Source: Candidatus Omnitrophota bacterium
GTDB taxonomy: Bacteria; Omnitrophota; Gorgyraeia; Zapsychrales; Fredricksoniimonadaceae
Direction: 5' to 3'
DNA: 64,000 nucleotides
NCBI GenBank assembly: GCA_903944345.1
Contig: CAJARJ010000020.1
Span: 18,110 to 82,109 of the forward strand
Below the pieces are notes generated by a model, which did not search any database, was not told the DNA's origin, and saw nothing but the letters and a program-made list of their open reading frames with translations. This document shows positions 7,466 to 32,210 of the stretch, piece by piece (position 1 is the first letter of the stretch; each line of letters starts with the position of its first letter). The position numbers were made by a program, and so were the translations under genes.

Positions 7466-7507
7466 AGATAAAACCTGTTGAAAGTGTTGAAACTTCTAAA
7501 AAAGACC

Positions 7508-9134: not shown

Positions 9135-9299
9135 AAATCCTTAATAAGTCTCAACAGGAAGACGTCAGGGCCCCCTTCTTGCCACGCGGAAAGCAATACA
9201 TATTGAATTAAATTATAACGAAGAAAGTTAAGAACTGATATTATAATCTCATGTAATGTGGCTCTCTCAGACAATTCCGATACCAAAACCTGAAATCCT

Positions 9300-12231: not shown

Positions 12232-12242
12232 GTCTGATGCCT

Positions 12243-13136
12243 TCAACCCTTTTGTTTGCGTACCAGAACCCAAAGCACGTTCCGTGGCAATAGCCAATCC
12301 AGCGGCAGAGACACAGCAGCAATGGCTCCTTTGGGAGCAAACGGACGATACAGCCATTGCGGAGTTTTCCTGATCCTCAAGTGACGATACAGGCTCGGGA
12401 TAACCAGCGGGATCGTGTCAAAACCCGAGTCGACAACCGTCAGTCCAAGCTGGCGGCAGAAAGTTTCGACCGATTTCATATCGAAATGCCACAAATGCCT
12501 GGGAGGATCAAGAAAGAAGTTGCAGGCCCCAAAGAGTTTACTCGCCGAAGATGAAATGTCCGGCAGAACTATATAAAAGCTGTTGGCCCCGTGATCGATC
12601 ATTCTGTTTACAAAGACTTCCGGCTCCCTGATATGCTCCAGAACATGCCGTAACACAACCAGTCCGTCTTTCATCCCGGGAAAACCTTCCAGAGAGTAAT
12701 TATTGTAATCAATAGAATAATACGGGATATCCGCGGTTTCCAGTAAACAGGGCTTCTGCCCACAGGAGTCTGCGGCGGAAACCCTGGCTCCGGAGGCGCG
12801 AATAATCCTGGCGAAATCTCCTGTGCCACAGCCGATATCCAGAAACTCGCCGGGTGAAAAACTCCTCCGGATACGGGCCAATTCCCGGCGCAGAAGAAAA
12901 TTCTTCAGAAACAGGTGCAGATCCGAGGTGGCCTGACGCATCATTCCGCCCATTTCATTCTGATAATACTGCGCCAGATCTTCCGGAAACGGCGCGGTTT
13001 TCTTGACCCCGCAGGAATCGCATTCCAACAGGCTAAAAGGTGTTGCGGTCACCAGATCACACGTCTGCAGAAACACCCGGCTAAACCGGCCCTGACGGCA
13101 GATTGGACAAATGCTGTTATCTGTTGCATCGGCCAT
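12243..13136 (-). CDS. class I SAM-dependent methyltransferase with N-terminal zinc-ribbon
   Basis: CPIC...CDSC zinc-ribbon at the N-terminus and an LDIGCGTGDF SAM-binding motif I. Confidence 0.75.
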   Translation of the reverse strand: MADATDNSICPICRQGRFSRVFLQTCDLVTATPFSLLECDSCGVKKTAPFPEDLAQYYQNEMGGMMRQATSDLHLFLKNFLLRRELARIRRSFSPGEFLDIGCGTGDFARIIRASGARVSAADSCGQKPCLLETADIPYYSIDYNNYSLEGFPGMKDGLVVLRHVLEHIREPEVFVNRMIDHGANSFYIVLPDISSSASKLFGACNFFLDPPRHLWHFDMKSVETFCRQLGLTVVDSGFDTIPLVIPSLYRHLRIRKTPQWLYRPFAPKGAIAAVSLPLDWLLPRNVLWVLVRKQKG

Positions 13137-13163
13137 GACTCATACTCCTTGTGCATATCCCTG

Positions 13164-14039
13164 TTATTTATAAAACACCCAGAAAGAAAACCCGATCCAG
13201 CAAAGCACACTTGTTATCAAAGGAAAATCCGCAAGCAGAATTTCGTCAACATCTTCGGTCTTGCCGACAACGTGAACCAGATACAGATATCGAAACACTC
13301 CATAAACAACAAAAACCAGCGAATAAATCATCCAGTAACCATGCACCCTGGCGACTATGTCCGGAGATATTGTGTACAGCCCGTAAAAAACAATAGCCAG
13401 TGTCGCCGAAATCATGATCAGTTGATCGAGAAAATATATCGTGTAGTGCCGTAAAGCGCCCCGGTGCTCCTCTGCTCTGTCTCCCAGCGTTCTCATCTCC
13501 GATCTTCTTTTGGTGAAACCAAGAAAAAGTGACAGCAGAAAGACACAAAGCTGCAGCCACCCCGAGGGGAGAACCCCAACGACTACCGCGCCTGCCCATA
13601 TCCGTATACAAAAACCAAGCGCGATACAGCCCACATCCAGCAATACCAGTTTCTTCCAAAAGAAAGTGTACATAAAATGCAGTAACAGATACAACCCTGC
13701 CAGACAGAAAAACAGGCCACCAAGAAACAGCGAAAGCAGCAATCCGCCGCACACAAGAACAACCCCTAGCAAAACAGCAATGCGTCGGCTGATCCTGCCG
13801 CTGGCAATAGGCCGTTGACATTTCTTCGGATGGGCCCGGTCCCTGTGCATGTCTTCCAGATCATTGACAACATACACCCCGCTGGAGACAAGGCAGAACG
13901 CAACCAAAGCCAGCAAAGCGGACGAAAAAGATGACAGGCTTACAAAGCGGCCGGAAAAAAGAAGCGGCGCCAGAACAAAAAGGTTCTTGATCCACTGTTT
14001 GGTGCGCATTAGCCTGAAAACATCCATCAAAAAACTCAT
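13164..14039 (-). CDS. UbiA-family prenyltransferase, decaprenyl-phosphate phosphoribosyltransferase (DPPRS)-like
   Basis: Start placed at ATG 14039 (MSFLMDVFRLMRTKQWIKNLFVLAPLLFSG...), which gives an ATGA overlap with the upstream gene stop. NDLEDMHRDRAHP is the Asp-rich motif of the DPPRS/UbiA family. Multiple TM segments. Confidence 0.7.
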   Translation of the reverse strand: MSFLMDVFRLMRTKQWIKNLFVLAPLLFSGRFVSLSSFSSALLALVAFCLVSSGVYVVNDLEDMHRDRAHPKKCQRPIASGRISRRIAVLLGVVLVCGGLLLSLFLGGLFFCLAGLYLLLHFMYTFFWKKLVLLDVGCIALGFCIRIWAGAVVVGVLPSGWLQLCVFLLSLFLGFTKRRSEMRTLGDRAEEHRGALRHYTIYFLDQLIMISATLAIVFYGLYTISPDIVARVHGYWMIYSLVFVVYGVFRYLYLVHVVGKTEDVDEILLADFPLITSVLCWIGFSFWVFYK

Positions 14040-15052
14040 TCGTCCCCCTTTTTTGCTCCGGCAGGAACATTTTGAACATAGGACAATATCTCTTTCACTG
14101 CCTGTAGTAAGCGCACGGTAAGTTCCGGCGATCTCAGGCAGGGATACGTCCCATGACATTGCGGAACAGCATAACCAAAGAAAGTACAAGGTGAGCAAAG
14201 AAGACCGGAATCCACAAAAAATGTCCTGGTGTTTTCCGGAGCCCATTTATTCCTGTTCCCTGGACCAAAGACAGCCACAGAAGGAACCGACAATGCCGCA
14301 GCGATATGTAGCAGCCCCGAATCCTGACCGATAAAACAACGAGCCCCGGCGACCAGGGCCACACTTTGGGCCAGGCTGGTCTTGCCGACAAAACTGACCA
14401 CGCCAGGACTCTTCATCTCATCTAATAGCTTCCCCGCGAATACCTTCATGTCCCCGCCTCCGAGCAAGACGACATTCAGTCCACTGTCAATAATCAGTCG
14501 CCCCATCAATACGAGCTGTTCCGAGGAAAAACGCCTAGCCGCGGAACTTCCTCCCAATGCCAGCGCCGCGTACGGCCGGGACAAAGATGCTTTTGCCCAG
14601 GCAATGTCGGGGGCAGAGACAGCATATGATCCTTCCAGATGCAATCTCCCCCGTAACCCCAAAAGGGAAAAAAGCCGGCTAAAATTATGCAGCTCATAAG
14701 CTTCGTGAGAATATTCAACGGCTGTATAAAAAAGACCCGCCCGTTCAGGACGAGTGCCAAAGCCGATCGTCCTGCGGGAGCGAATCAGGCGACTTAAAAC
14801 AGCACTCAGACAGTGCCATTGCTCGGTATCAACAACCCAGTCATATGAATTCCGGCCAACCGCCGTTAACTCACCTAAAACATCGTAACAAAAAATCTGA
14901 CCGCAAAGTCCGGGCTGCGAACGAAATACAGCCACGTTCCTCTTTTCGCACAAAATGTCAAGTGTGTGTCCCCCACGCTTTAACTCGCGCAGGACTGGCA
15001 ACAGCAAAACCGCATCCCCAATACCGCCAGGCCGAATAATCAGAACTTTCAT
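14036..15052 (-). CDS. glycosyltransferase family 9 (heptosyltransferase-like)
   Basis: Start at ATG 15052 (MKVLIIRPGGIGDAVLLLPVLREL...), the typical GT9 N-terminus. C-terminal ...CFIGQDSGLLHIAAALSVPSVAVFGPG matches the GT9 signature. The ORF could extend to 15208. Confidence 0.65.
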   Translation of the reverse strand: MKVLIIRPGGIGDAVLLLPVLRELKRGGHTLDILCEKRNVAVFRSQPGLCGQIFCYDVLGELTAVGRNSYDWVVDTEQWHCLSAVLSRLIRSRRTIGFGTRPERAGLFYTAVEYSHEAYELHNFSRLFSLLGLRGRLHLEGSYAVSAPDIAWAKASLSRPYAALALGGSSAARRFSSEQLVLMGRLIIDSGLNVVLLGGGDMKVFAGKLLDEMKSPGVVSFVGKTSLAQSVALVAGARCFIGQDSGLLHIAAALSVPSVAVFGPGNRNKWAPENTRTFFVDSGLLCSPCTFFGYAVPQCHGTYPCLRSPELTVRLLQAVKEILSYVQNVPAGAKKGDE

Positions 15053-15217
15053 CGGGCCCGAGGGAAGAACGGAAGAATCCGTCCGACTCCTCCCTAAACA
15101 ACGACAAACAATGGATCCCAGGGTGTGATCAAGCAGCTTGATCCCTTTAAGCGGCCAGCTCCCCTGCGAACGAAAAATATCCCACAGAGTAATCGGCCTC
15201 ATAAACAAGAAACCATC

Positions 15218-16693
15218 TTAATCTCCCAGAAGAACACGGGGCAGTTTATGCGTGAGCAGTCCGCGAACATGGTCAAGGGTTGGCTGGCCAAACTTGCGCA
15301 GAATCATATCCTGATAACGGGAAGAACCAAAATACTGCATAAAAGCATTGTCCCGAAAACGCAGAATCTCGGCGGAAGAAAGATATTTGCTGGGCAGCGG
15401 AACCGTATGCCGGTTAAATTGAGAATAACCCTCCCAGCAGGAGGGCAAAGGCAAAGCGTCGCGCACTGCCGTATCATACAAAGCCGCCCCTGGATAAGCC
15501 ATGGTCACATAAAAATTGGCATATTCGCAGTTAAGTTCAACAGCCAGATCCAGAGTCTCCTGCATGGTCGACATATCATCGTCCGGCAGACCAAACATGT
15601 AATTACCAATCACATGAATGCCCGCCTCGTTGGTTTGACGAATGACCTGAAGAATCTTTTCCCGGTCGAATCTTCCCTTGGCAACCCCTTTACGTACTTC
15701 CGTGTTGGCCCCCTCAATGCCATAGGCAATCCAGCGCACGCCCGCGCGAAAAAGTTTACGGAGAATATTTTCATTAACGGTATCAATACGCGCATACACC
15801 CAGATATTAATATCGTATTTGCGCTCGGCCAGACCCAGGCAAACCTCGTCCATCCGGCGGGGATTGACCACAAAAAGCTCGTCAACAAACTTGAAATTTC
15901 TGACCCCGTATTTCCTAACCAGAAGATCAATCTCCTCGAGAACCTTGCCGGCAGAACGAAAACGAATTCCCCCCCCGCCGTAAAGTGCATGAATATTGCA
16001 GTAACTGCAGTTGTAGGGACATCCCAGGCTTGTGTAAACCATGGCATAGGAAGCCCGATCCTCAAGATGCCCGAAACAATGCCAGTTATGCGCGCGGTAA
16101 CGATCCATCGGCAAAAGATCCCAGGCCGCCAGAGGCAGAACATCCAGATCCTGAAGCTGCCGGGCCCAGCCCCGGTCAACAACCTTATCATTCTGCTTAT
16201 ACCAGAGCCCCTGAATGTTACCCGTATCCCCGCCATTCCTGAAGGCCATGACGAGGTCGGTAATACACAAAAATGTTTCACCCCGGCAAAGAAAATCTAC
16301 CGGCTCTTCCCGTAGGGTGCGTTCGGGAACACCGGAAGGATGAATCCCGAAAATAACCGAACGGACATTAGTGGACTGTTGGCGCAGTTCTTCAAGGACA
16401 GCGCGCACCGCCGGCATTTTGGGTGTCGAGGAAACACTTGGGTTGCCGCCTATGGCCCCCACGGCACACAAAAGCGGTTGAAGTTCCACCGCCCGGCGCA
16501 CAGCTTCCCGCGGCCCGAGTTGTTGGGCATCCGCATCAATAATCGCAACCGTAAGCCCGCGCTCGCGCAAATAGGCAGCCAGCAAAGCCAGCCATAAAGG
16601 TGTCTCAACGGCGGCATACTCATTGGCCAAAGCCCCGTAGATCGGCTCCTTGCCGCCGGGATTGACAAGAACAACATCCAGCGGAGATCCCAT
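15218..16693 (-). CDS. B12-binding radical SAM protein
   Basis: 491-aa ORF. N-terminal cobalamin-binding-like domain, radical SAM cluster CPYNCSYC. Confidence 0.8.
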   Translation of the reverse strand: MGSPLDVVLVNPGGKEPIYGALANEYAAVETPLWLALLAAYLRERGLTVAIIDADAQQLGPREAVRRAVELQPLLCAVGAIGGNPSVSSTPKMPAVRAVLEELRQQSTNVRSVIFGIHPSGVPERTLREEPVDFLCRGETFLCITDLVMAFRNGGDTGNIQGLWYKQNDKVVDRGWARQLQDLDVLPLAAWDLLPMDRYRAHNWHCFGHLEDRASYAMVYTSLGCPYNCSYCNIHALYGGGGIRFRSAGKVLEEIDLLVRKYGVRNFKFVDELFVVNPRRMDEVCLGLAERKYDINIWVYARIDTVNENILRKLFRAGVRWIAYGIEGANTEVRKGVAKGRFDREKILQVIRQTNEAGIHVIGNYMFGLPDDDMSTMQETLDLAVELNCEYANFYVTMAYPGAALYDTAVRDALPLPSCWEGYSQFNRHTVPLPSKYLSSAEILRFRDNAFMQYFGSSRYQDMILRKFGQPTLDHVRGLLTHKLPRVLLGD

Positions 16694-17559
16694 TATAAAG
16701 CCTCCAGAATAGTGCGCACAGGCTCCGCCCGGTTAAGCGTATAGAAATGCAGACCCGGAGCCCCGCCAGCCAGAAGCTCGCGGCACTGCTCGACAGCGAA
16801 ATGAATGCCGGCGGCCAGCGTCTTGTCCTTATCACTGGCAATCGGTGCAAAAATATCATGCACTTTCTGCGGAAGTGATGCGCCGCAACCTTTACAAAAG
16901 TTAACCGCGCTTTCGTAATTGGTCACAGGAAGAATGCCGGGAATAATCCGCGCGGTAACGCCCGATATGCGCAGCCTGCGGACATAATCAAAATAAAGAG
17001 CATTATCAAAAAAAAGCTGGGTCATCACAAAATCTCCGCCGGATGCAATCTTGCGGCACAGAATTTCGGCATCGAACTCCGGTGAGGCGGCCAGCGGATG
17101 CCCCTCGGGAAACCCGGCCACACCAATCGCAAAATGATCGCCATAATGTTTTCGGATAAAGGCCACCAGTTCACTGCTGTAGCGAAAATTCTCCGGCCCA
17201 GGCTTCCAGTCCGGATTATCTTTGGGCGGATCCCCGCGCAACGCCAGCAAATTCCTGACATCCCCGGCCTTAAGCTCATCGAGAATCTGGCGAACCTGGG
17301 CACGGGTATGCAAAACACAGGTAAAATGATGCAGTGCCGGAAGATTATATTCTTTCTGAATCGAGAATACCAAAGAAGAGGTTGTTTCCCGGCTGGAACC
17401 ACCAGCTCCATAAGTCACCGAAACAAAATCGAACGGCAGACGAGTCAGTTCACCCAACGCCAGACCAAGCGCTTGCGCACCCTGAGCTGTTTTAGGAGGG
17501 AATATTTCGAAAGAGAAAGTGCGCGTTTTCGCGGCAAAAATATCGGTCAGTTTTTTCAT
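16693..17559 (-). CDS. metF: 5,10-methylenetetrahydrofolate reductase
   Basis: 288-aa ORF. FSFEIFPPKT...VTYGAGGSSRETT...ALRGDPP is the MetF fold signature. Confidence 0.85.
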   Translation of the reverse strand: MKKLTDIFAAKTRTFSFEIFPPKTAQGAQALGLALGELTRLPFDFVSVTYGAGGSSRETTSSLVFSIQKEYNLPALHHFTCVLHTRAQVRQILDELKAGDVRNLLALRGDPPKDNPDWKPGPENFRYSSELVAFIRKHYGDHFAIGVAGFPEGHPLAASPEFDAEILCRKIASGGDFVMTQLFFDNALYFDYVRRLRISGVTARIIPGILPVTNYESAVNFCKGCGASLPQKVHDIFAPIASDKDKTLAAGIHFAVEQCRELLAGGAPGLHFYTLNRAEPVRTILEAL

Positions 17560-17597
17560 CGAATGGGGATTATATCACGAAAAACATTCTTGCTGCG

Positions 17598-20500
17598 TCA
17601 TCTTGTTTCTCTTTTAAGAGGCCGCAGGAAAAAGACCCGTTCCCCAAAGACCACCTCAACCGCGTGTGCTGCCTGCACATCCGTCAGAGTAAAAAGCCAC
17701 GTCCCGTTATCGTAGGTCAACGCCACCCCTTTGCCATCCACAAGAACGTATTTGACCGACTGCCCGGCTTCCGGAGTCAGACGAAACGTCACGGATTCTC
17801 CTCTGGGAACATTCTGCACGCCGGAAGGCTCAATGGTTCCAGGACCGCTAACCGTTGGCGTCACCGCGAAAGTGATCGAAACAGTCACTTGCCCGCTGAC
17901 TGTCCCGCCGATTCCGCTGCAAGTCAAAGAATAAACTGTTGTCGATTCTGTGGGCGTCACTTCCTCCGTCCCGGCAACAAGTTTGGCTCCTGACCAGCCA
18001 CCACCAGCTGTGCAAACCGTCGTATTGGTAGATTCCCAGACCAACGATGAAGATTCCCCCGGATCGACATTCACCGGATTGGCTGTAAAACTGAAAGTGG
18101 CCGGAATCGCAGTAAAAACAGCCGTGATAGTCTGATTGGATTGCACGTCACTGAACGTATAAGAACTGTTCGTTCCAACCGAAACTCCGTTAACAAGAAC
18201 GTCTTCTATACGATACCCCTCATCCGGCGTCACTGTAAAGACCTGACTTCCCCCTTCAGCGACCGTTGTCGTATCCGGAGCAATCGTTCCATTTGCCCCC
18301 TGGGTAACAGTCAAGGTAAACATGCGCGGTGTAACCGCGACTTCCAAAGACTCGGTATCCGTACCGCCCGGGCCGGAACAGGCCAGGGTGTAGGTGCTAT
18401 TCTGGGCAACAGTGACCGCCTCGGATCCGGCAATGGCCTTTGCCCCAGACCAGGCACCACCGGCGGTACAAGTCGTTGCAGACGTCGAAGCCCAGCTGAG
18501 AGTGGTCACATCCCCCGTAACTACAGTCAAAGGGTTAGCAGAAAAACTGACAACCGGAGCCGGAATCACAATCGAAGAAAATGACGCCGTAATCTGGTGA
18601 TCTTCTTGAACATTCATAAAAGTAAATAAAGAAATCGCGCCCTGAGATACACTGTCCACCTGAACATCTGTCACCTGGTACCCGGCATCAGGAGTAATCG
18701 TGAACGTCTGATCATTGCCCTCGAGCAGCGCAGTTGTTCCCGGGGCAATCACGCCATTATTTCCCTGGGTAACCGTCAGATTATAAACAGGAATATTAAC
18801 CGTAAGCGCAAACGTCTGCTGACTCGAAGTGCTATACCCCGTGCAGGTCAGCGTGTAATTGGCGGTTCCGGCTGCAGAGGGAGTCACCGTCTGTGTCCCC
18901 GCCGTTGCCTTGCTGCCTGACCAGTCTCCGCTAGCCGTACAACTATTAGCATAAAGGGTGGACCAGGTCAGAATCGAAGATTGCCCGACCGAAATTGTTG
19001 CCGGAGCCCCGGAAATTGTAATGACCGGTGCCGGAACAGGGATCAACGAGAAAGAAGCCGTGATGGCGTGATCGGCCTGAACATTGGTAAAAGTATAGGA
19101 GTCAACGGCTCCGAACGAAACTCCATCCACCAGCACATCCTGCACCTGATAACCAGCCTGCGGAGTCATGGTGAATGTTTTGTCGGTCCCGGCTGTAACA
19201 GCGGTTGTACCCGGAGAAATCACGCCATTAGCCGACTGGGTTACCGTTAAGGTATGCGTTGCCGGCGTAACCGTTACCGTAACCATATCCGCGCCCGCGC
19301 CCCCGTCTCCATTGCAAGTCAACGTATAACTGGCGGTGACAGCAGGGGAAACCACCTGGGTGCCAGATGTGGCTTTTGCTCCCTCCCAGGCCCCGCTGGC
19401 CCCGCAAGCATTGGCGTTCGTCGTGGTCCAGCTCAGTGTGGAGGAACCGCCCCCAATAATCCCCTCCGGAGTTGCCGTCAAAGTAACTGTCGGTGGCAAC
19501 GGGGCAAACGTTGCTGTAAGTGTATGATTGGACTGGACATCGCTAAAAGTATACTGATTGGCCGATCCTTCGGGAATGCCGTCCGCAATCACGCTCCCGA
19601 TCCGGTACAAAGGATCCGGAGTAATCGTAAATATCTGACTGGCTCCGTCTACGACAGTGACCGTACCGGGAGAAATCGTTCCGTTAGATCCTTGCGCAAC
19701 ACTCAAGGTATAATTGACAGTCCCCACTGTTACTCCGGCATTTACAGCTGTTGACCCTCCTGGGCCGTAACAAGTCAAGGTATACTGAGCGGTTGCTGCG
19801 GGGACAACGGGATGAGTTCCTGCTGTCGGTTGGAATCCCGCCCAGTCGCCGCTGGCCACACACAGTGTCGCATAATTCGTGGACCAAGTCAGGACTGAAG
19901 AGCCTCCTTCGAGAATATTGACCGGGCTGGCCGAAAAAGTGAGCTGCGGTGGAATCGGCGCGAAAACCGCGGTAATACTCGAATCCACCCTGACATCGGG
20001 AAAAGTATACGAAGTCAGAGACCCGACCGAAATTCCATTAACCAGAACGTCCTGAACCAGATAATCAGCATCGGGGGTAATGGTAAACGTCTGACTACTG
20101 CCTCCGGATACCAGCACTGTACCAGGAGCAATAGTCCCGTTGTTCCCCTGAACCACCTCGAGAGTGAACGTACGCGGATTAACCGTAACCGTTACCGTTT
20201 CGGTATCCGTGCCTGATGGGCCCGTACAGACCAAAGTATACGTTGCGGATGCAGCCGGAGTCATAATAGCCTCCCCGCCGACATCTTTCGTTCCGGTCCA
20301 GGAACCACTGGCCGTGCAGGCGGTGGCATCCGTAGCCGACCAGGTAAGAGTAGAGGAATCCCCGGCAATAATAGTGGCTGGTGCGGCGGTGAAAGTTAAT
20401 ACCGGTGCCGGCGGCGGGATCAAGGAAAAAGAAACCGCAATGGTATGGTTCGCCTGAACATTAGAGAAAATATAAGTCGGAGATGTCCCGACAGATACCC

Positions 20501-23500
20501 CATCGACCAATACATCTGCAATCTGATAACCGTTGTGCGGTGTCATTGTGAAGGTCTGATCCGTCCCCGCATTGACCGTTATCGTGGCTGGTGAAATATC
20601 TCCGTTAGTCCCCACGGTAGCCGTAAGTAAATATGTTTTGGGCTGAACAGTAACCGAAACGCTGGCATTGTCCGAACCGTCCGGTCCCGTACAGGTCAAA
20701 GTATAGGTTGCAGCAGCCGCAGGAGTGACCGCTTCTGACCCCGCAATATCCCTTGCGCCGGACCAGTCCCCGCTGGCCGTACAAGCCGTAGCGTCCGTCG
20801 TCGACCAGGTCAGGGTGGCAAAGTCCCCGGCGATAATAGTCAAAGGATCAACAGTCAATACGATCTCGGGAGGCGTCAGGGGAATCAGGGAAAAAGAAGC
20901 CGTAATACTACGATTCGCCCGCACGTTGGTGAAAGCATACTCGCTCACAGCCCCGCGGGATACTCCATCCACCAGCACATCCTGAATCTGATAACCGCTA
21001 TCCGGCGTGATTGTAAAGACCTGGTCAGCCCCGGCGTCAAGCGTGAGCGTTCCGGGAGAAATCGTGCCGTTATTTCCCTGGGTTACAGTCAGAGTATACG
21101 TCAACGGCTGAACAGTCACTGTCGTTGAATTCTCCCCGCTGCCGCCGGCACCGGTACAAGTCAATGTGTACGTTTCTGTTTGCGCCGGTGTAAGCGTAGC
21201 CGTTCCTGTTGTCGCTCTGGATCCGGTCCATCCTCCGCTGGCCGTACAGGCCGTAGCATCAGTAGCCGACCAGGTCAGGGTGGTTGATTCTCCGGTATAA
21301 ATCGTGGACGGACTGGCTGAAATGCTAACAACCGGCGGCACAACCGGGATCAGGGAGAAAGAAGCCGAAAGCGTATGATCAGCAGAAATATTCGGGAATG
21401 TATACGAAGTTATCGAGCCTTGGGAATTACCGTCCACCAGAACCGCCTGCACCTGATAACCGCTATTGGGTGTTATGGCAAACGTGGGAGAACTGCCGGC
21501 CGCCACGGTCGTCGTTCCGGGTGAAACACTGCCATTGGAGCCCGCACTCACGGTCACGGTATACTCAACAATTTCTTCGGCAACTGTCACCGGAATGGCC
21601 GCAGAAGTGGTCTGTGCTCCATTATTATCAGTCACCTTCAGCCGGGCCACGTAATTACCCAAAGCCGCGTAGGTATGCTGGACAATAGGATTAGTAGCAT
21701 GCGCTGACCCGTCGCCAAAGTCCCAATCATAAGAGGCGATGTTACCATCGGGATCATACGAGTCGGTTCCCACAAAATCGACCACCAAAGGTGGCTCGCC
21801 CGAGGAAGGGAGCGCCGTACCTCTTGCTATCGGAGGAGTATTGGTTCCGGCAAACGTATACGTGATCTTGCTGTAATTGCTGTTGTTATCGATGCTCAGC
21901 GGTAAACCCGTGGCTGAAGACAAAACCGCCATACTTTCCGGATTCAGAAGTGCAAAACTGCTTACTTGAAGAGGACTCGCCGAAGTGTTGTCTACCAAAA
22001 CAAGATAATAATCTTTGGACGTTGTTGTTGCCGGCAGTAGATCGGTAAAATCAAAAAGGAAATCGCCGCTCATCGCAGTCGTCGTTCCGTTAAAAGCATA
22101 ATCCCCACCCTGATAATACAGCGCCCCCGGATACCATTCGGTACGAGTGGAATACGCTGCCCCGGCATCGGCAATCGCCAGTGCCACTTCAATCTGCTGG
22201 CGCTTGGCATGATTCAATGTAAATTTCCCGACCAGCTTGGGCACATAAGTTCCCCCTGATCTGACCGTCATGGCAAAAATTTGCTGTCCTGTAAACATGG
22301 GTTGTCTTCCGGAAGAAGGGCCTCCGCTCACCTGTGTAATCGGCCGAAGCGCATCATAGGACACCCACACAAACCCGCTGTTGCCCCAACTGGTGCCCCA
22401 GGAATTGGCAATTTTGAAAGCTCCCAGTTCATTGGCATCCAGAGTCGAATTGCCATTGACATCAATCCATAAATTATCATTGTATCCGACTATAGTAATG
22501 AAATGACCGCCATCCTGACCATTCTGCCAGGAAATCGCTTCCTGACCAATATAGCTGTTGTCATCCGTCGTAGCCGGATTATCGCGCACTGTGGTCATCA
22601 CCCAGGAATAGGCATAAGTGCCCCCTGTAAGAACATAACCATTATTCAAAAGTTTCTTGACCAGCAACATGCCTTCGTTTGTGCCGACATTATCCACATA
22701 AACAGCCGTATTTGCCCGGGCTTTAAGCGCTTCCCGCCAGGTGGCAGCATCGGTCACCCAGGGAAGATAACTGCTGTCATAAGGAACCAGCGACCAGACA
22801 GGCGCCCCGTGCTGAAGCATCAAAATATAGGCATGAACCGCATAACTTCCGCCATCCGCGCCACCATTGATCATATTGTAAATAAATTTGGGAGAATACT
22901 TGGTCGAATTATCCGCGTTATTGATCGCAATATTTTTTTCGCGGGCGATCATGTAAGACAACTGATAATAGCCGGCGGCAAAAGCCACACAGGAACCAAG
23001 CAAGCCTTGATCCCTGATCGGAGGGAACCATTGCAAAAGACTGTTGTCGGCAGAAAGAGGAAGCGAGGCCCCGACAAGATCGGAGACGGAAGCCGCATTA
23101 TAATTTAAAATACCGGTTGAAGCAGGCGAACTCACAATATCGTCAGCGGTGCTCTCAATCTCCTGGCCAGAAGTAATTGCCAACGCCGAGGGCAAAAGGG
23201 GACGGCGTTGCTGCTGCAAATGAGCATTGACACGCTGCAGTCCAAACGCATTAAGCCTGACATTGGTGACCCGATTGAAACTTTTACGTATGCGGGCTTC
23301 TTCCTCTATTGAATACTTCATCCCGGTCTTGAGGTTCGGATGTGTCTTTGGAGTGTATTTATTGCGGACTGTATTAAGTGTGACAACCTGTGCGCAAGCT
23401 AGCTCGGAGGAACCGCCACCTCCCAAACGCGCCAGCGGAAAACCAGCCGTGAGCAGACAAGAAAAGATCAGCAAACAACGTAATATAGCACCGGGTTTCA

Positions 23501-23504
23501 GCAT
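17598..23504 (-). CDS. giant secreted papain-family (C1) cysteine protease with PKD domain and 8 tandem Ig-like/B-repeat-like modules
   Basis: Start proposed at ATG 23504 (MLKPGAILRCLLIFSCLLTAGFPLA signal peptide). The ORF is open to 23540. C1 catalytic residues are present: QGLLGSCVAFAAGYY (Cys), GGHFITIVGYND (His), NSWGTSWGNSGFVWVSYD (Asn/Trp). PKD motif YDWDFGDGS...H.Y...G.Y...VTD. Then 8 units of [~80-aa TLTWS...C.ASG.W...YTLTC domain + ~75-aa YTLTV.QG.NG.ISPG...TITPD.GYQ..DVLVDG domain]. Confidence 0.8.
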   Translation of the reverse strand: MLKPGAILRCLLIFSCLLTAGFPLARLGGGGSSELACAQVVTLNTVRNKYTPKTHPNLKTGMKYSIEEEARIRKSFNRVTNVRLNAFGLQRVNAHLQQQRRPLLPSALAITSGQEIESTADDIVSSPASTGILNYNAASVSDLVGASLPLSADNSLLQWFPPIRDQGLLGSCVAFAAGYYQLSYMIAREKNIAINNADNSTKYSPKFIYNMINGGADGGSYAVHAYILMLQHGAPVWSLVPYDSSYLPWVTDAATWREALKARANTAVYVDNVGTNEGMLLVKKLLNNGYVLTGGTYAYSWVMTTVRDNPATTDDNSYIGQEAISWQNGQDGGHFITIVGYNDNLWIDVNGNSTLDANELGAFKIANSWGTSWGNSGFVWVSYDALRPITQVSGGPSSGRQPMFTGQQIFAMTVRSGGTYVPKLVGKFTLNHAKRQQIEVALAIADAGAAYSTRTEWYPGALYYQGGDYAFNGTTTAMSGDFLFDFTDLLPATTTSKDYYLVLVDNTSASPLQVSSFALLNPESMAVLSSATGLPLSIDNNSNYSKITYTFAGTNTPPIARGTALPSSGEPPLVVDFVGTDSYDPDGNIASYDWDFGDGSAHATNPIVQHTYAALGNYVARLKVTDNNGAQTTSAAIPVTVAEEIVEYTVTVSAGSNGSVSPGTTTVAAGSSPTFAITPNSGYQVQAVLVDGNSQGSITSYTFPNISADHTLSASFSLIPVVPPVVSISASPSTIYTGESTTLTWSATDATACTASGGWTGSRATTGTATLTPAQTETYTLTCTGAGGSGENSTTVTVQPLTYTLTVTQGNNGTISPGTLTLDAGADQVFTITPDSGYQIQDVLVDGVSRGAVSEYAFTNVRANRSITASFSLIPLTPPEIVLTVDPLTIIAGDFATLTWSTTDATACTASGDWSGARDIAGSEAVTPAAAATYTLTCTGPDGSDNASVSVTVQPKTYLLTATVGTNGDISPATITVNAGTDQTFTMTPHNGYQIADVLVDGVSVGTSPTYIFSNVQANHTIAVSFSLIPPPAPVLTFTAAPATIIAGDSSTLTWSATDATACTASGSWTGTKDVGGEAIMTPAASATYTLVCTGPSGTDTETVTVTVNPRTFTLEVVQGNNGTIAPGTVLVSGGSSQTFTITPDADYLVQDVLVNGISVGSLTSYTFPDVRVDSSITAVFAPIPPQLTFSASPVNILEGGSSVLTWSTNYATLCVASGDWAGFQPTAGTHPVVPAATAQYTLTCYGPGGSTAVNAGVTVGTVNYTLSVAQGSNGTISPGTVTVVDGASQIFTITPDPLYRIGSVIADGIPEGSANQYTFSDVQSNHTLTATFAPLPPTVTLTATPEGIIGGGSSTLSWTTTNANACGASGAWEGAKATSGTQVVSPAVTASYTLTCNGDGGAGADMVTVTVTPATHTLTVTQSANGVISPGTTAVTAGTDKTFTMTPQAGYQVQDVLVDGVSFGAVDSYTFTNVQADHAITASFSLIPVPAPVITISGAPATISVGQSSILTWSTLYANSCTASGDWSGSKATAGTQTVTPSAAGTANYTLTCTGYSTSSQQTFALTVNIPVYNLTVTQGNNGVIAPGTTALLEGNDQTFTITPDAGYQVTDVQVDSVSQGAISLFTFMNVQEDHQITASFSSIVIPAPVVSFSANPLTVVTGDVTTLSWASTSATTCTAGGAWSGAKAIAGSEAVTVAQNSTYTLACSGPGGTDTESLEVAVTPRMFTLTVTQGANGTIAPDTTTVAEGGSQVFTVTPDEGYRIEDVLVNGVSVGTNSSYTFSDVQSNQTITAVFTAIPATFSFTANPVNVDPGESSSLVWESTNTTVCTAGGGWSGAKLVAGTEEVTPTESTTVYSLTCSGIGGTVSGQVTVSITFAVTPTVSGPGTIEPSGVQNVPRGESVTFRLTPEAGQSVKYVLVDGKGVALTYDNGTWLFTLTDVQAAHAVEVVFGERVFFLRPLKRETR
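17700..21700. repeat. coding tandem repeat, about 8 copies with ~462-bp period (inside the giant protease gene)
   Basis: Recurring motif (..ctgaacattggtaaaagtatagga.. and variants) at 18146, 18610, 19075, 19536, 19998, 20455, 20915 and 21381, giving spacings of 457-466 bp. Copies are diverged (~70-80% identity by eye). Confidence 0.75.
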
Positions 23505-23639
23505 AATCTTTCTTTCTGCTCCCCAAGAGTTTATAAACACTTAACACCTGCCTGATCCAGGACTTTGCATCCCGGGGCCTCAGACAGACTGACTCGTGAA
23601 AAGCATAGCATAATGGGAAGAGAGGGTACAAGCAGGTAT

Positions 23640-23696
23640 TGTAAAAAAATAAACACCGCCTCTGCCTGACGCTTTTACGCCAAACAGAAGCGGTGT
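23640..23696 (-). terminator. Rho-independent terminator downstream of gap
   Basis: On the minus strand a 12-bp stem (acaccgcctctg / cagaagcggtgt, 11 of 12 paired) with ~20-nt loop is followed by TTATTTTTTTAC (A-run on plus strand 23640-23652), immediately after the gap stop at 23750. Confidence 0.55.
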
Positions 23697-23749
23697 CTGA
23701 TCTTTGCCAACTGAAAGGAAATTACATCACAGGAACAAAACCTGCGAAT

Positions 23750-24856
<1,107 letters not shown>

Positions 24857-24992: not shown

Positions 24993-26270
24993 TCAGAAAT
25001 TAATCAGCAAGCCCGTGCTTTCGCTCAAAGGCTGCTCAAAATAACTCCCGCGATTTTCTTTGTACGAGTTTTCTGCCAGCAGACGAGCCCGGACAACGTC
25101 GGCAGAGCCTGACAGACGGCCCAGCATGTCCTTGTAAACAGCAGGGAAATACTCTTCTTCCCGGGCTGCAACAAGCACGGCGCGCAAAACCTCCCGCTTG
25201 TTTTCAATAATCGATCGATAGGCTTGCGGTAACCGCGGCAACAACAAACAATGCTCCAGGTAATTAATGGCCCGGATATAGACCTGCCGGGCCTCTGCCA
25301 GAGCCAGATGCGAAGAAAGCACCAAAACACGTGCTTCGCGAACAGAATCGGGCAGCATGTCCAACTGCGCCAGGATCCTGTCAGTAACCGGCACCCCGGG
25401 CAGAGACAAACGGATCAGCTTGCCCTCCGAGACCCGCCCGTCGAGCGAAAAATCTTCTGCCGCCTTCTGCCAGAGGGCGACAAACTCCTGCCGCGCCTCC
25501 GCGACAACAGAGGCAAAGGAACGTTTAGGAAAAACTTCGCTGATATCATTGGCTGTGATCACCACTTCCCCGCTGAGCGCGGCGACCTTGTCACCCTCAT
25601 TAAGCTGTGGAAGTCCCAGCAGTCCCACCGCATCACGCACAACATGCACTGACCTACGCCCGTCTTCAAGCGTCCCGGCATCCTGAATGCAGGGCAGAAA
25701 TGAAAACGGCGCTTTGACCTTGCGACAATCGCCAAGCGCCCGCATCAATCCGTTATCCTGCCTGGCCAGCAGACATTCCCGGACTGAAAGCTTGCGCAAG
25801 CGTTCGTTCAGGTTATCAGAGGGTAAATCCAGCCTTAATAGTCCCAGCTCTTCCAGCAACAAGCTCTGCATGGACTGTGTCCGGTAATGTTTAACAATAT
25901 CTGCCAGCGCGGGACTGGAATACGACAAACGCAACAGGTCATACGCACTGACCGGAACCTTATCCAGCAGGCGTCGGGATAAAAGAGGCCGCAGCCCCTC
26001 CTCAATTTCCTGCCGGAACGCCAGCTCACGATCGTCCAGGCGTACCGGCCGCAGCAGCGGGCCAGTCGAAGCCTTGTCCAGCTCGCTCACTTTGGCTTGG
26101 TGCTGTGCGCGGTCAAGGCCCGGTGTCCGATAATAACAAAACCCCCGGTCGTCAATAACCGCCTTGCGTAAACGGGTATCCGCAGGCGCGTCCGGTGCAA
26201 AAATATCAGCGGCCGCCGGCACTCCCACCAAAAGCAGAACCAGAGGGAACCATCTTAGAACAAACAGCAT
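24993..26270 (-). CDS. hypothetical secreted Leu/Arg-rich helical protein (last gene of the T4SS-like operon; TraH-sized)
   Basis: Start placed at ATG 26270 (MLFVLRWFPLVLLLVGVPAAA, signal-peptide-like), 16 nt inside the traU 3' end. No recognisable motif. Confidence 0.4.
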   Translation of the reverse strand: MLFVLRWFPLVLLLVGVPAAADIFAPDAPADTRLRKAVIDDRGFCYYRTPGLDRAQHQAKVSELDKASTGPLLRPVRLDDRELAFRQEIEEGLRPLLSRRLLDKVPVSAYDLLRLSYSSPALADIVKHYRTQSMQSLLLEELGLLRLDLPSDNLNERLRKLSVRECLLARQDNGLMRALGDCRKVKAPFSFLPCIQDAGTLEDGRRSVHVVRDAVGLLGLPQLNEGDKVAALSGEVVITANDISEVFPKRSFASVVAEARQEFVALWQKAAEDFSLDGRVSEGKLIRLSLPGVPVTDRILAQLDMLPDSVREARVLVLSSHLALAEARQVYIRAINYLEHCLLLPRLPQAYRSIIENKREVLRAVLVAAREEEYFPAVYKDMLGRLSGSADVVRARLLAENSYKENRGSYFEQPLSESTGLLINF

Positions 26271-27157
26271 TCTTTCTGTCTCCAATAAATCCAGACATAA
26301 CTGCCGTCCGCCGAACGCCGGCCGTTCTCCCACAGATCCGCCTGCTCTCCGACGCGCAAGCAACGGCTCTTTGACGGAAAGACCATCTGCAACCGATCCC
26401 TCAATTTGTCTGGCGAGAACATGGCCGGCACAATAATCCGATGCGGAACCAGCATGTTCAACGAAGCAATATCCACCGCCCGGTAGGCTGCCACGGCCGA
26501 GCCGACGGCCTCGCTATAATGAACCAGCTGTCCGGTCCGCGGAAACAACGGCCCCCAGCTGCCCAGACATGCCACAGCCGACAAAGGATGCAGGAAGTTC
26601 TCACACACCGGCCCGGCTGCGGCCAGAAGACGCGCCAGAGGATGCCCTGCTTCCCCGCGACCAACGCGCCACTCGGCAGCGTCAATCTCACTTAAATAGG
26701 ACAATGGCCCCGCAAGATCCGGGGGCCCCTCGCACGGCGCCAGAATAAGAGCAGACACCTGATCAGATAAAGGAAAACCGTAAACATGAACATCGTTCAT
26801 TTGCAAGGCCGTGGTGTCGGAGGCGTACGCGCTCCCGCTGTCGGGAGCGGCCTGACATTCCGCCGCCGCAGTAATGGTCTTGTTCCCCAATGACTGCAAA
26901 AACTTTCCCGCCAACGGACGCAATTCGTCAATCATGACCCGGCCCGGCATCTTGACGGTCTCAACAAGCAAGACCGGTTGACGGTAACGCACTCGCACCC
27001 CCACAAAAGGAGGAGTCGACCGCCGACAAACACCGATCACACGAAAATCCACACAATCCAGATCAGCGCGTAATGCCAGCGTGGACAGACTCTCAGCGCA
27101 GACAGGTACGGACAGCACAAGCCATATCAGCACAGAAACATTTATTACCCGGAACAT
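26255..27157 (-). CDS. traU: F-type conjugative-transfer pilus-assembly protein TraU family
   Basis: 300-aa Cys-rich secreted protein. ...YLSEIDAAEWR... and the C-terminal ...WIYWRQKECCLF closely parallel F-plasmid TraU (...AYLSEIDPTW... and ...LMWRKRNCVFL). AGGAG SD 7 nt upstream. Confidence 0.7.
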   Translation of the reverse strand: MFRVINVSVLIWLVLSVPVCAESLSTLALRADLDCVDFRVIGVCRRSTPPFVGVRVRYRQPVLLVETVKMPGRVMIDELRPLAGKFLQSLGNKTITAAAECQAAPDSGSAYASDTTALQMNDVHVYGFPLSDQVSALILAPCEGPPDLAGPLSYLSEIDAAEWRVGRGEAGHPLARLLAAAGPVCENFLHPLSAVACLGSWGPLFPRTGQLVHYSEAVGSAVAAYRAVDIASLNMLVPHRIIVPAMFSPDKLRDRLQMVFPSKSRCLRVGEQADLWENGRRSADGSYVWIYWRQKECCLF

Positions 27158-27178
27158 AAGAGCTCTCCTGCCGGAACA

Positions 27179-28102
27179 TCAGCCGCAACGAATGATCCAG
27201 AACATGGCCAAAGACGGCTGCATATTATTGTGCGCCTGGCCGCCCCCAGCGTTTTCTGTCGGATGAAGATATGGCACCGCCGGAATATTGTCATAATCCA
27301 GCGACTCCGCGTTCCCTTGCGCTGACCCGCCCCACCCCTGATTCTCGCTGAAAGTGTAATCATACATATTATGCTTGTGAGCGGGCATTTCCGGGATCGT
27401 CAACACATGCATCTCTGCCCCCAGCCGGCCACCTAGTACCGATGCTGACGGATGACTAACCACATTCGCCGCACTGCCCGTCATATTGTCCATTCCAATG
27501 GGCACGCGTCCCCGAAGGTCAGGCAAGGCAAACGTACTTGTTCCGTCTCCAGCACCATAAACTGTACCGATCAACGCAAACAAAAGAGTGTACTGCTCAC
27601 GTGAAATCGTCCGGCCGTCGCAAGGCAACCAACCCTCAGGTATTGTCGTGCCGGGCCAGGGGATCATGCTGCCAATCGGAAGGGCGGCATCAGGATCCTG
27701 GGCAAAACCGATATCCGACTGCACCCGGCCGTCTTGAACAACGCTTATTGGTGTCATACGCGCAACAAAGGCGGACAGCTGCGCAGGAACTTCTGTCTCA
27801 AGCATCATCCCGGCCCCCGATGAAGATAAAACATACTGACCTCCAAAAGGGTTTTTGCCCTCCCACGCCGCAGGCATATAGCCACCCTCCCTTAAATTTT
27901 GCCAATTCTGCGGCCAGACATGCTCTTTACGCTGAAATGCCCTGACAGCCTCGGTGATCCGCCCTATCTCCGCGACCGTGATGCGGGCAGCCTCAAGCTG
28001 GACACCGCGCAGAACACCGGGCACAACAATACTGACCAGAAGCCCCGCAATCAGCAGAGAAATCGACAGCTCAATCAGAGAAAATCCCTTGTCCGACCCC
28101 AT
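27179..28102 (-). CDS. type IV (pseudo)pilin with C-terminal phage tail-collar domain
   Basis: Prepilin leader MGSDKG|FSLIELSISLLIAGLL (Gly at -1, Phe at +1, Glu at +5). C-terminal half IPEGWLPCDGRTISREQYTLLFALIGTVYGAGDGTSTFALPDLRGRVPIG...HKHN matches the phage tail-collar fibre domain family (MdpB-like). Strong SD TAGGAGGTGGT before the ATG. Confidence 0.7.
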   Translation of the reverse strand: MGSDKGFSLIELSISLLIAGLLVSIVVPGVLRGVQLEAARITVAEIGRITEAVRAFQRKEHVWPQNWQNLREGGYMPAAWEGKNPFGGQYVLSSSGAGMMLETEVPAQLSAFVARMTPISVVQDGRVQSDIGFAQDPDAALPIGSMIPWPGTTIPEGWLPCDGRTISREQYTLLFALIGTVYGAGDGTSTFALPDLRGRVPIGMDNMTGSAANVVSHPSASVLGGRLGAEMHVLTIPEMPAHKHNMYDYTFSENQGWGGSAQGNAESLDYDNIPAVPYLHPTENAGGGQAHNNMQPSLAMFWIIRCG

Positions 28103-28110
28103 ACCACCTC

Positions 28111-28551
28111 CTAGAAAGTCGCCAGCCAGGTTTTGGCCCCTGCGTCATAGGAAAGTGTTTCCGCTTTCCCCCGAAACAATCTGGAAAGACCAGCCGCAGC
28201 ATTATCCGGCACACTCGAAAGCGCAATGTCCACCCGGGTGCGATCCGCTGTATTTGCGTTCACCCGATAATCACCGCCATAACTGTTTGCCCCCGTCGGG
28301 TCAAACGTAGCGGGCAAATACCCGGAACTCTTCATGGCTTCGATACTAATACCTTCATACGTCAGACTCATCACCGACAGATAGTTTTGCGCTGCCAGAC
28401 GCAGGTTATCAACCGACTGGGCCTCTCTTTGCAGACGTGCCTGCGCAGCCATCCCCCCTCCAGCACTAATCATGCCGACGAGCATGGCAATAAGTCCCAA
28501 TGCAATCGAAAGTTCAACAAGAGAAAAACCATCATTTTTGTTTACTCGCAT
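28111..28551 (-). CDS. type IV pilin / pseudopilin (prepilin-type N-terminal cleavage/methylation domain)
   Basis: 146-aa ORF. MRVNKNDG|FSLVELSIALGLIAMLVGMI class III signal. AAGGAGGAG SD. Confidence 0.7.
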   Translation of the reverse strand: MRVNKNDGFSLVELSIALGLIAMLVGMISAGGGMAAQARLQREAQSVDNLRLAAQNYLSVMSLTYEGISIEAMKSSGYLPATFDPTGANSYGGDYRVNANTADRTRVDIALSSVPDNAAAGLSRLFRGKAETLSYDAGAKTWLATF

Positions 28552-28582
28552 CCGCTCCTCCTTTTTTATTTTAAAACACCCC

Positions 28583-31245: not shown

Positions 31246-31697
31246 AACTCCACCCTCAGGACAATAGTTTCCCCCTGCGCACCTGTCAGAATTGCACCAT
31301 TTTCATCAAGCGAACTGACTTCAAAACCGCCAACACGCTCTTTTTCCCTTGCCCAAACTTGCTGGGCATCAAACTGAAAACAGCCCCGCCAAATCCCCGC
31401 GATAGAAACAACCGAACGCAAGGATAGCGTCAGCGACTGCGCCCGGGAAACCCCGTCCTTCGCTATATCACTGACCTGCAATGGGATATCCGTCCCTATT
31501 TTTTTTAACTCGTGCTCTACTCTGGCTTTTTCCAGATCAAGCTGCAACAGACGCAAGGATTGCTCTTTATCCTGCACACTGGAAGAATATGCTCTTAAGC
31601 GCGACAAAGATTCCTTCATATCCTCTTCTCCTGCTCTGACCGGACCTGACTGCAGCAAAAATGCTGCCACAATTACGGCTATTCCTGTTTTGATCAT
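31242..31697 (-). CDS. hypothetical periplasmic protein with signal peptide (part of pilus/secretion module)
   Basis: 151-aa ORF. MIKTGIAVIVAAFLLQSGPVRA signal peptide. ATGA-coupled to both neighbours. No motif recognised. Confidence 0.35.
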   Translation of the reverse strand: MIKTGIAVIVAAFLLQSGPVRAGEEDMKESLSRLRAYSSSVQDKEQSLRLLQLDLEKARVEHELKKIGTDIPLQVSDIAKDGVSRAQSLTLSLRSVVSIAGIWRGCFQFDAQQVWAREKERVGGFEVSSLDENGAILTGAQGETIVLRVEL

Positions 31698-32188: not shown

Positions 32189-32210
32189 ACCTTCCCTCTC
32201 TCAACAGACA

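Follow-up and report, generated by a model that had tools for sequence, protein, structure and literature searches.

A 1,968-residue papain-family protease, predicted to be exported, followed by a long row of small beta-sandwich domains

Results

The window analyzed here, the whole 64,000-nucleotide stretch from a Candidatus Omnitrophota bacterium, is rich in envelope-synthesis genes. On its minus strand lies the gene for a very probably exported papain-family protease of 1,968 residues, in which small beta-sandwich domains form a long chain behind the catalytic part. The gap gene separates it from a Tra/type II-like operon on the same strand, whose last gene is ~1.5 kb away. This apparatus includes a secretin, a T2SSE ATPase, a T2SSF platform protein and pilins, and its nearest named relatives are in Omnitrophota. 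The protease gene and the sequences upstream of it are:

17598..23504, minus strand: whole coding sequence, 1,968 aa plus stop codon (17598-17600), from the open reading frame, two assemblies with an identical gene and the orthologue in the relative L084
23505..23651, minus strand: conserved spacer upstream of the protease gene with putative promoter, 5' leader and ribosome-binding site, from comparison with L084
23652..23697, minus strand: intrinsic terminator of gap with a 20-bp stem and a T-run after it, conserved in L084, which parts the protease gene from the genes upstream

The open reading frame itself runs upstream to a GTG at 23540, while the ATG at 23504, chosen as the start by gene callers in three other assemblies, gives the 1,968-residue protein. 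Two independent assemblies (L088 and L090) show no differences across the 5,907 nt of the gene, and the L084 orthologue is 89% identical without a single gap. The dN/dS is 0.09 for the whole gene and 0.03-0.12 for individual modules, apart from the signal peptide region, where it is relaxed (0.41). The gene is real and constrained by purifying selection, and is neither a chance reading frame nor an assembly artefact. In JGI, exactly the same protein is named "C1A family cysteine protease/PKD repeat protein".

The spacer between gap and the protease gene (23505-23760) is 92% identical to that of L084, compared with 85.6% for the collinear region, and this higher conservation suggests that the protease gene has a control region of its own. 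A consensus scan called no promoter in 23505-23651, so the protease promoter placed there is putative. The gap gene has its own promoter-like site, and this site, the gene itself and its terminator all stand between the protease gene and the apparatus; a shared operon or co-transcription with the apparatus was not found, and the protease gene reads as an independent transcription unit. No terminator is predicted in the 38 nt that separate its stop codon from metF downstream, so that the protease may share a transcript with this housekeeping gene. An initial sequence-only reading of the locus had placed just gap and one secreted protein between the protease and the apparatus, these two being in the same orientation. 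The orientation stands; the "secreted protein", which lies between gap and TraU, is instead a conserved member of the apparatus cluster.

The N-terminal part of the protein is divided as follows:

23391..23504, minus strand: signal peptide region, aa 1-38, the single hydrophobic segment of the protein, supported by the family alignment
23055..23390, minus strand: conserved N-terminal region, aa 39-150, putative propeptide, from conservation, pLDDT and a dN/dS of 0.07
22320..23054, minus strand: papain-family (C1) peptidase domain, aa 151-395, from Pfam, PDB sequence matches, Foldseek and residue conservation
23007-23009, minus strand: Gln166 codon
22989-22991, minus strand: Cys172 codon
22503-22505, minus strand: His334 codon
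22404-22406, minus strand: Asn367 codon
22398-22400, minus strand: Trp369 codon
21843..22319, minus strand: unnamed family-specific beta-sandwich domain, aa 396-554, present in all relatives, with an all-beta model

The protein is very likely exported, as the sequence-only reading had proposed. Its signal peptide combines an n-region with Lys3 and Arg9, a hydrophobic core at aa 10-23 and a putative cleavage site, Ala-Cys-Ala/Gln at aa 36-39, that is kept in the L084 orthologue; all full-length members in the family alignment have a signal peptide, and the protease contains no hydrophobic segment other than this one. In addition, 16 of its 19 cysteines form eight invariant pairs in Ig-like modules, the pattern expected from an oxidizing, extracytoplasmic location, which supports export. 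We rejected a lipoprotein reading through Cys37, the sole candidate, because the lipobox pattern applied to the end of the signal peptide ([LVI][ASTVI][GAS]C) is absent: the residue follows E-L-A (D-L-A in the orthologue), 14 residues beyond the hydrophobic core.

In the alignment of 24 relatives, residues Gly61, Asn85, Gly88 and Arg91 of the N-terminal region are nearly invariant. The model is confident at aa 60-120 (pLDDT 91-96) and falls below 50 in a disordered linker at aa 123-140, after the folded part; Pfam gave no match to the I29 inhibitor domain. The peptidase domain that follows matches Pfam Peptidase_C1 (PF00112) at aa 160-383 with 25.2 bits against a cut-off of 20.7, just above threshold. 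With this score being marginal, motifs and structure matches are the main support for the predicted C1 fold. Gln166, Cys172, His334, Asn367 and Trp369 are all present in the canonical C1 order (Q-x5-C...H...N-S-W), are invariant or nearly so in the 24 relatives, and lie in a domain with a dN/dS of 0.07. The AlphaFold model of aa 1-560 (pLDDT 86.4) supports the papain fold (two lobes, alpha plus beta): Foldseek matched it to xylellain and procathepsins K and L (E 1e-10 to 1e-11), Lpg2622 and Cwp84. In total, 239 PDB chains match the model at E <= 1e-3, and all 50 matches listed are C1-family peptidases. A PDB sequence search returned Blo t 1, Lpg2622, falcipains and Cwp84. Identity to characterized papain-family enzymes is only 15-18%. 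Thus Pfam, conservation and Foldseek agree with the original assignment of a papain-family protease with Cys, His and Asn/Trp motifs.

Between the protease and the PKD domain sits a beta-sandwich of ~155 aa that the sequence-only reading had overlooked. It is modeled as all-beta with pLDDT > 90, and Arg435, Gly466, Gly467, Phe471, Gly473, Phe482, Asp485 and Asp505 are invariant in the family alignment; sequence-profile searches of Pfam and the PDB gave no match.

The remainder of the protein is a chain of small domains and a short tail:

21582..21842, minus strand: PKD domain, aa 555-641 (Pfam PKD_4 E 2e-19, PKD E 8.5e-13)
21342..21581, minus strand: first B-repeat (Flg_new_2 type), aa 642-721, ahead of the super-repeats
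17640..21341, minus strand: eight super-repeats of 152-157 aa each, aa 722-1955, from self-built HMMs and a model of one unit
17601..17639, minus strand: short C-terminal tail, RVFFLRPLKRETR, without a recognizable sorting signal and largely kept in the L084 orthologue

The PKD domain reported earlier is confirmed by Pfam scores above threshold (69.8 and 48.6 bits for PF18911 and PF00801 at aa 555-641). Each super-repeat consists of a two-cysteine Ig-like module of ~79 aa followed by a B-repeat of ~75 aa. HMMs built from the protein's own copies detect eight Ig modules and nine B-repeats; Pfam Flg_new_2 (divergent InlB B-repeat, PF18998) covers six stretches with a total of 86.9 bits. The cysteine pairs run from 753/783 to 1831/1862, giving exactly eight Ig modules, among which L22, W24, C32, A34, G36, W38, G40, Y58, L60, C62 and G64 are invariant columns. 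The eight alternating modules proposed at the outset therefore hold for the Ig-like domains, while the B-repeats number nine, the extra one preceding the first Ig module. Similarly, the share of Thr, Ser, Gly, Val and Ala in the repeat region, put at ~50%, is 58.8% when measured.

The units are 34-59% identical to one another in protein and 53-66% in DNA, and each has a dN/dS of 0.03-0.12. TRF found no DNA-level tandem repeat in the gene, which rules out recent expansion or assembly collapse. The model of one unit is all-beta (pLDDT 96.2), and in fold it matches tandem Ig domains of a generic kind; a PDB sequence-profile search with the two-cysteine module gave no match. Searching for homologues of the repeat unit yielded mainly short B-repeat fragments, which carry little information on architecture. 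The two-cysteine module itself occurs in more than 23,000 representative proteins, but among the best 150 of these only the present protein alternates it with B-repeats. An alignment-based profile gave apparent core matches in two other giant proteins with two-cysteine modules, P0409 and P0382; these were rejected, since they cover PKD columns only.

At the C terminus, Pfam and NCBIfam gave no match anywhere in the protein to T9SS CTD, T1SS (RTX), PEP-CTERM, GlyGly-CTERM or LPXTG signals, and no sorting-signal match in the last 150 aa even at E up to 1. The T9SS and T1SS signals that the sequence-only reading had named as alternative routes of export were thus not found. There is no hydrophobic or transmembrane-like window at this end, and Pfam, NCBIfam and hydrophobicity revealed no anchor at either end.

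Species-representative genomes from many phyla, monoderm bacteria and archaea among them, contain the core of ~500 aa (pro-like region, C1 domain and beta-sandwich) at no fewer than 579 loci. A family search found 247 proteins at E <= 1e-3, with none above 44% identity among the 120 matches listed; the core is shared at about 35-45% identity. The relatives are mostly 560-980 aa long, and many have a PKD domain right after the core, in C-terminal arrays that vary among PKD, Big, TIG, FN3, malectin and PPC domains. The Ig/B-repeat super-repeat was joined to the core at none of the 83 relative loci fetched. The protease is a member of a widespread bacterial family that is essentially unstudied. 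Multidomain prokaryotic C1A peptidases have been acknowledged as numerous and unanalyzed (PMC10380794), and two papers on Omnitrophota make no mention of TraU or of the protease.

To evaluate the linkage with the apparatus, we compared loci across divergent genomes. TraU, TraC, TraE and TrbI were absent within 10 kb at all 83 loci with relatives of the core, and two of these loci have an ordinary T2SSE. Conversely, the protease is missing from all five apparatus loci of greater divergence (TraU identity 48-64%), which are followed by other genes, such as tatAC or an ammonium transporter. A single-protein scan of species genomes for TraU-like proteins found no relative. Only this genome and one collinear relative with 85.6% DNA identity show the adjacency; shared at that distance alone, the conserved order says nothing about function.

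Discussion

The most probable product of the gene is a multidomain cysteine endopeptidase of the papain family (C1A-like), exported by Sec and predicted to act outside the cytoplasm, independently of the adjacent pilus locus. The signal peptide would carry the protease across the inner membrane, and a further, putative route would lead across the outer one. The conserved N-terminal region (aa ~39-122) may serve as a chaperone and inhibitory propeptide, with the disordered linker permitting its removal. Cys172 and His334 would form the catalytic pair, assisted by Gln166 at the oxyanion hole and by Asn367, which would orient the His, and the beta-sandwich would be a fixed part of the catalytic unit, like the lectin-like domain of Cwp84. 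Eighteen small domains of beta-sandwich or beta-grasp type (1 PKD, 9 B-repeats and 8 Ig-like modules braced by putative disulfides) would make a long protease-resistant chain, roughly 60-80 nm if fully extended, as estimated from typical domain size. Such a chain could act as a spacer, as a multivalent binding array that keeps the enzyme on a surface or substrate, or as both. Since an anchor was found at neither end, a stalk that holds the protease away from the cell and a free soluble enzyme with a binding array are both plausible. The role would most likely be extracellular protein breakdown, either for nutrition or in acting on the surface of another cell. The position beside the Tra/type II-like pilus locus would be a local accident of gene order.

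It is instructive to compare this architecture with the closest known systems. Cwp84 of Clostridioides difficile (PDB 4ci7, 4d59), a C1A protease with a lectin-like domain and cell-wall-binding repeats, was detected by sequence (E 0.011) and by fold over both domains (423 aligned columns). Both proteins have a signal peptide, a propeptide (putative here), a papain-fold domain, an attached beta-sandwich and then C-terminal repeats. However, identity is only ~15%, and Cwp84 belongs to a monoderm and is held by CWB2 repeats, whereas the present protein belongs to a diderm and carries PKD, B-repeat and two-cysteine Ig domains with no known anchor. The catalytic domain finds its best structural match in xylellain of Xylella fastidiosa (PDB 3ois; E 4.4e-11). 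Xylellain is reportedly a short C1A peptidase from a bacterium, with an N-terminal pro-region lying over the active site; unlike the present protease, it is a single domain of ~270 aa with no accessory domains (18% identity). NttB/Lpg2622 of Legionella pneumophila (PDB 6a0n, 6a0q), a secreted C1 peptidase of another diderm, matches in sequence (E 6.6e-4) and in fold at ~16% identity. It offers a precedent as a substrate of type II secretion whose gene lies apart from the secretion genes (PMC6617341), but has a single domain of ~340 aa and lacks the beta-sandwich, the PKD domain and the repeat array. The same ~500-aa core is found in an unnamed clade of multidomain bacterial C1 proteins, annotated in NCBI and JGI as "C1 family peptidase" or "PKD domain-containing protein", from which the present protein differs in its attached Ig/B-repeat super-repeat, absent at the 83 relative loci fetched.

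The likeness to Cwp84 raises another reading, which we consider unlikely: that the protein is mainly a cell-surface adhesin or S-layer-like envelope component, whose protease head processes surface proteins of its own cell, in the way that Cwp84 matures SlpA, and does not mainly digest external substrates. Foldseek aligns the core with both the protease and the lectin-like domain of Cwp84 (423 columns), the best PDB match of the repeat unit is the Deinococcus HPI S-layer protein (E 4.7e-4), and envelope-synthesis genes abound in the window. The structural matches are, however, weak and generic (TM-score 0.32-0.39), Pfam and NCBIfam reveal no anchor or module for binding the cell wall or outer membrane, and no candidate S-layer substrate gene adjoins the protease. 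The very different C-terminal arrays of relatives fit variable targeting better than a fixed envelope role.

It is more doubtful still that the adjacent apparatus has the protease as its dedicated substrate or surface partner, with the secretin machine passing it across the outer membrane or displaying it after Sec export. The two lie on the same strand ~1.5 kb apart, an arrangement kept in one close relative, and the secretin, T2SSE, T2SSF and pilins are the parts that a type II-like exporter needs; Pfam and NCBIfam detect no other export signal in the protease. Against this, gap intervenes with its own promoter-like site and a strong terminator, Tra genes are found at 0 of 83 loci of protease relatives, and the protease is missing from all five of the more distant apparatus loci. 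The family also occurs in monoderms and archaea, which could not use such a machine, and the sole relative with the adjacency is uninformative, being collinear at 85.6% DNA identity. The suggestion of the sequence-only reading that the protease is cargo or partner of this apparatus is thus not supported, given the terminator, the conserved spacer and the separate distribution of the two.

Omnitrophota is a phylum proposed to include host-dependent or predatory nanobacteria. In a speculative extension, slightly less likely than the cargo reading, the protein would be a long-reach weapon or attachment device directed at the surface of another cell, with the super-repeat setting the working distance, perhaps jointly with the neighboring tail-collar-tipped pilus/Tra-like machine. 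An inactive catalytic domain in a purely structural or adhesive protein is very improbable: the low Pfam C1 score (25.2 bits) and the 15-18% identity to characterized enzymes would allow it, but Gln166, Cys172, His334, Asn367 and Trp369 are invariant or nearly so in 24 relatives and the domain has a dN/dS of 0.07.

The reading as an exported endopeptidase opens no new mechanism and removes a tempting, unsupported link to the neighboring secretion locus. Environmental genomes commonly encode multidomain C1 peptidases of bacteria, which are essentially unstudied. The present analysis delimits a large clade with a fixed catalytic unit (pro-like region, C1 domain and unnamed beta-sandwich), together with two unnamed building blocks, the beta-sandwich and the two-cysteine Ig-like module, which is useful for annotation and for choosing a representative to characterize.

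Gene structure and domain organization

A single long minus-strand ORF fills window positions 17598-23504 in the ORF listing, running from an ATG at 23504 to a stop codon at 17598-17600 and encoding a protease of 1,968 aa. The same ATG was chosen by gene callers in three other public assemblies, and the exact protein is already recorded on 10 contigs across NCBI, JGI, ENA and Logan, with the JGI label "C1A family cysteine protease/PKD repeat protein/...". The start of metF (MTHFR) lies 38 nt downstream of the protease stop, with no terminator predicted between them (window 17559-17600). In L084, a collinear relative carrying a protease orthologue, an extra 191-aa ORF of unassigned function (L084 19560-20225) is inserted between these two genes; it has no copy in the window.

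Domain organization of the protease (residue numbers)
N-terminus: signal peptide, the sole hydrophobic segment of the protein
aa ~39-122: conserved N-terminal region (AlphaFold model and alignment; pLDDT 91-96)
aa 123-140: low-confidence linker, directly after the N-terminal region (AlphaFold model)
aa 160-383: Peptidase_C1 (Pfam; 25.2 bits, cut-off 20.7)
aa 396-554: all-beta domain of ~155 aa (window 21843-22319, minus strand), conserved among relatives as strongly as the protease domain
aa 555-641: PKD_4/PKD (Pfam; E 2e-19)
aa 642-721: first B-repeat, after the PKD domain (divergent InlB type; Pfam Flg_new_2, 86.9 bits)
aa 722-1955: eight super-repeats of 152-157 aa each

Each super-repeat comprises a ~79-aa Ig-like module with two invariant cysteines, then a ~75-aa B-repeat. 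The domains named in the sequence-only reading, including the PKD domain, are recovered by this analysis, but that reading missed the conserved N-terminal region and the all-beta domain, and its count of eight holds for the Ig-like modules and not for the B-repeats, of which there are nine.

Catalytic head

The protein had been read as a C1 cysteine protease, and the Pfam match is joined by a full papain signature: Gln166, Cys172, His334, Asn367 and Trp369 are all present, and alignment with 23 relatives shows them to be invariant or almost so. The AlphaFold model of residues 1-560, built from this alignment, has a mean pLDDT of 86.4. A Foldseek comparison of the model with the PDB returned 239 chains at E ≤ 1e-3, and every one of the best 50 listed is a C1-family peptidase, with xylellain at the top, procathepsins K and L next, and Lpg2622 and Cwp84 also among the matches listed. 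A possible but weakly supported alternative to the function proposed below is a Cwp84-like role, in which the protease would mature the cell's own surface proteins. The layout of the N-terminal region and its linker is as expected of a propeptide, and we regard this as its putative role. For the beta-sandwich at aa 396-554, Pfam and PDB profile searches detected no family and no solved structure.

Conservation of the repeat array

Copies of the gene in two independent metagenome assemblies show 0 differences from the window over 5,907 nt. L084 is collinear with the window at 85.6% DNA identity, and its protease orthologue is 89% identical and gap-free over 1,965 aa. By the Nei-Gojobori method, dN/dS between the two is 0.09 overall (dS about 0.66) and 0.03-0.12 in every module, each super-repeat included. 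An inactive protease head is unlikely: the catalytic residues are conserved, and dN/dS in the catalytic domain is 0.07.

The super-repeats are old, since the units are only 53-66% identical to one another in DNA and TRF finds no tandem repeat match in them; the same two observations rule out a recent expansion. Together with the module dN/dS values and the gap-free orthologue, they show that repeat number is maintained; an assembly artefact is ruled out as the source of the repeats.

Super-repeat 1 (window ~20800-21400, aa ~700-900) stands apart: its DNA is 93-97% identical to L084, vs ~77-87% elsewhere, and dS is 0.11, vs 0.5-1.1 in other modules. This pattern points to gene conversion or to a recent, localised exchange between the lineages.

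The neighbouring secretion-like cluster

The genes upstream of the protease share its strand. They begin with gap and a 425-aa protein bearing a signal peptide, and continue through TraU, a prepilin that has phage tail-collar and Gp10_C domains, T2SSF, T2SSE and then three small ORFs to a secretin, TraC/VirB4, TrbI and TraE.

Features upstream of the protease (window positions, all minus strand)
24993-40576: chromosomal cluster combining F-type conjugation parts (TraE, TrbI/TraB, TraC/VirB4, TraU) with type IV pilus/type II secretion parts (secretin, T2SSE ATPase, T2SSF platform protein, prepilins)
27179-28102: prepilin with N-terminal methylation motif, fused to phage tail-collar and baseplate-like Gp10_C
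24946-24919: gap promoter-like site
23697-23652: gap terminator (20-bp stem and T-run)

No relaxase or coupling protein was seen among the cluster ORFs scanned. Relatives of TraU (48-64% identity) retain a sub-cluster of T2SSE, T2SSF, pilin, tail-collar pilin, TraU and a ~410-aa protein; in distant relatives, which include named Omnitrophota, it sits among housekeeping genes. A limited search of the Omnitrophota literature found no mention of TraU. The tail-collar prepilin adjoins TraU in every relative examined, and from its fused domains the product would be a pilin with a phage-receptor-binding-type tip. Elsewhere, window 797-16693 is unusually rich in B12-binding and SPASM radical SAM genes (797-2443, 3860-4927, 5858-6859, 7689-9134 and 15218-16693). 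Genes for GT9 heptosyltransferase-like proteins, UbiA prenyltransferase and methyltransferases are interspersed among them, and the locus may serve to modify envelope lipids or glycans.

The proposal that the protease is cargo or a surface partner of this apparatus fared poorly. The promoter-like site and terminator of gap intervene, and the spacer between gap and the protease (window 23505-23760) shares 92% identity with L084, vs 85.6% region-wide, which suggests that the protease has its own control region. TraU, TraC, TraE and TrbI are absent within 10 kb of protease relatives in 3 contexts and 79 species-genome loci, only two of which have an ordinary T2SSE nearby, and the protease family extends to monoderms and archaea. 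Conversely, the protease never lies downstream of the apparatus in the TraU relatives, where the sub-cluster is followed by tatAC, an ammonium transporter or an unrelated unknown protein. Adjacency is found only in this genome and in L084, and is uninformative because L084 is close and collinear. Thus a functional link between the protease and the secretion locus is not supported. The 13-residue C-terminal tail has no recognisable sorting signal (Pfam and NCBIfam searches), and hence none of the alternative C-terminal export signals that the sequence-only reading had weighed against such a link. Export without help from the neighbours is plausible by analogy with NttB/Lpg2622, a bacterial C1 peptidase that is type II secreted and whose gene is unlinked to secretion genes (PMC6617341).

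Proposed function and family

In the most likely reading, the protease is exported by Sec as a zymogen. A chain of 18 small domains would carry or tether the catalytic unit (C1 domain and beta-sandwich) and could act as a spacer, a multivalent binding array, or both; at typical domain sizes, the extended chain is estimated at ~60-80 nm. The eight invariant cysteine pairs are consistent with disulfide-braced modules in an oxidising compartment.

A search with the core (aa ~40-555) found 247 proteins at E ≤ 1e-3, mostly of 560-980 aa, with none above 44% identity among the best 120 listed, a 42-44% ceiling that understates the protease's representation, as the list omits both the identical protein, present in the searched collection, and the 89% orthologue, a called gene on a database contig. 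The C-terminal arrays of these homologues vary (PKD, Big_7, TIG, FN3, malectin, PPC and others). When one genome per species was scanned, core relatives turned up at no fewer than 579 loci, in Aminicenantes, Planctomycetota, Desulfobacterales, Verrucomicrobiota and Omnitrophota, and also in Bdellovibrionota, Bacillota, Dehalococcoidia and even Methanosuratincola. A published survey remarked on the large number of multidomain prokaryotic C1A peptidases and left them unanalysed (PMC10380794).

The two-cysteine Ig-like module is very common: 23,392 representative proteins match it at E ≤ 1e-3, and a single protein can have as many as 47 copies. Among the best 150 matches, the protease alone alternates it with B-repeats. 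Two more giant proteins with this module at first seemed to share the protease core, but the match proved to be to PKD. The module has no convincing Pfam match in the protease, none in the repeat arrays of its six top matches, and no PDB match by sequence. The beta-sandwich is fixed to the protease's clade of C1 peptidases. Lacking Pfam models, the beta-sandwich and the Ig-like modules (within 17871-21341) are candidate new families, and the protease itself, of modest interest, adds an unusually long new member to a kind of enzyme that is known but uncharacterised.
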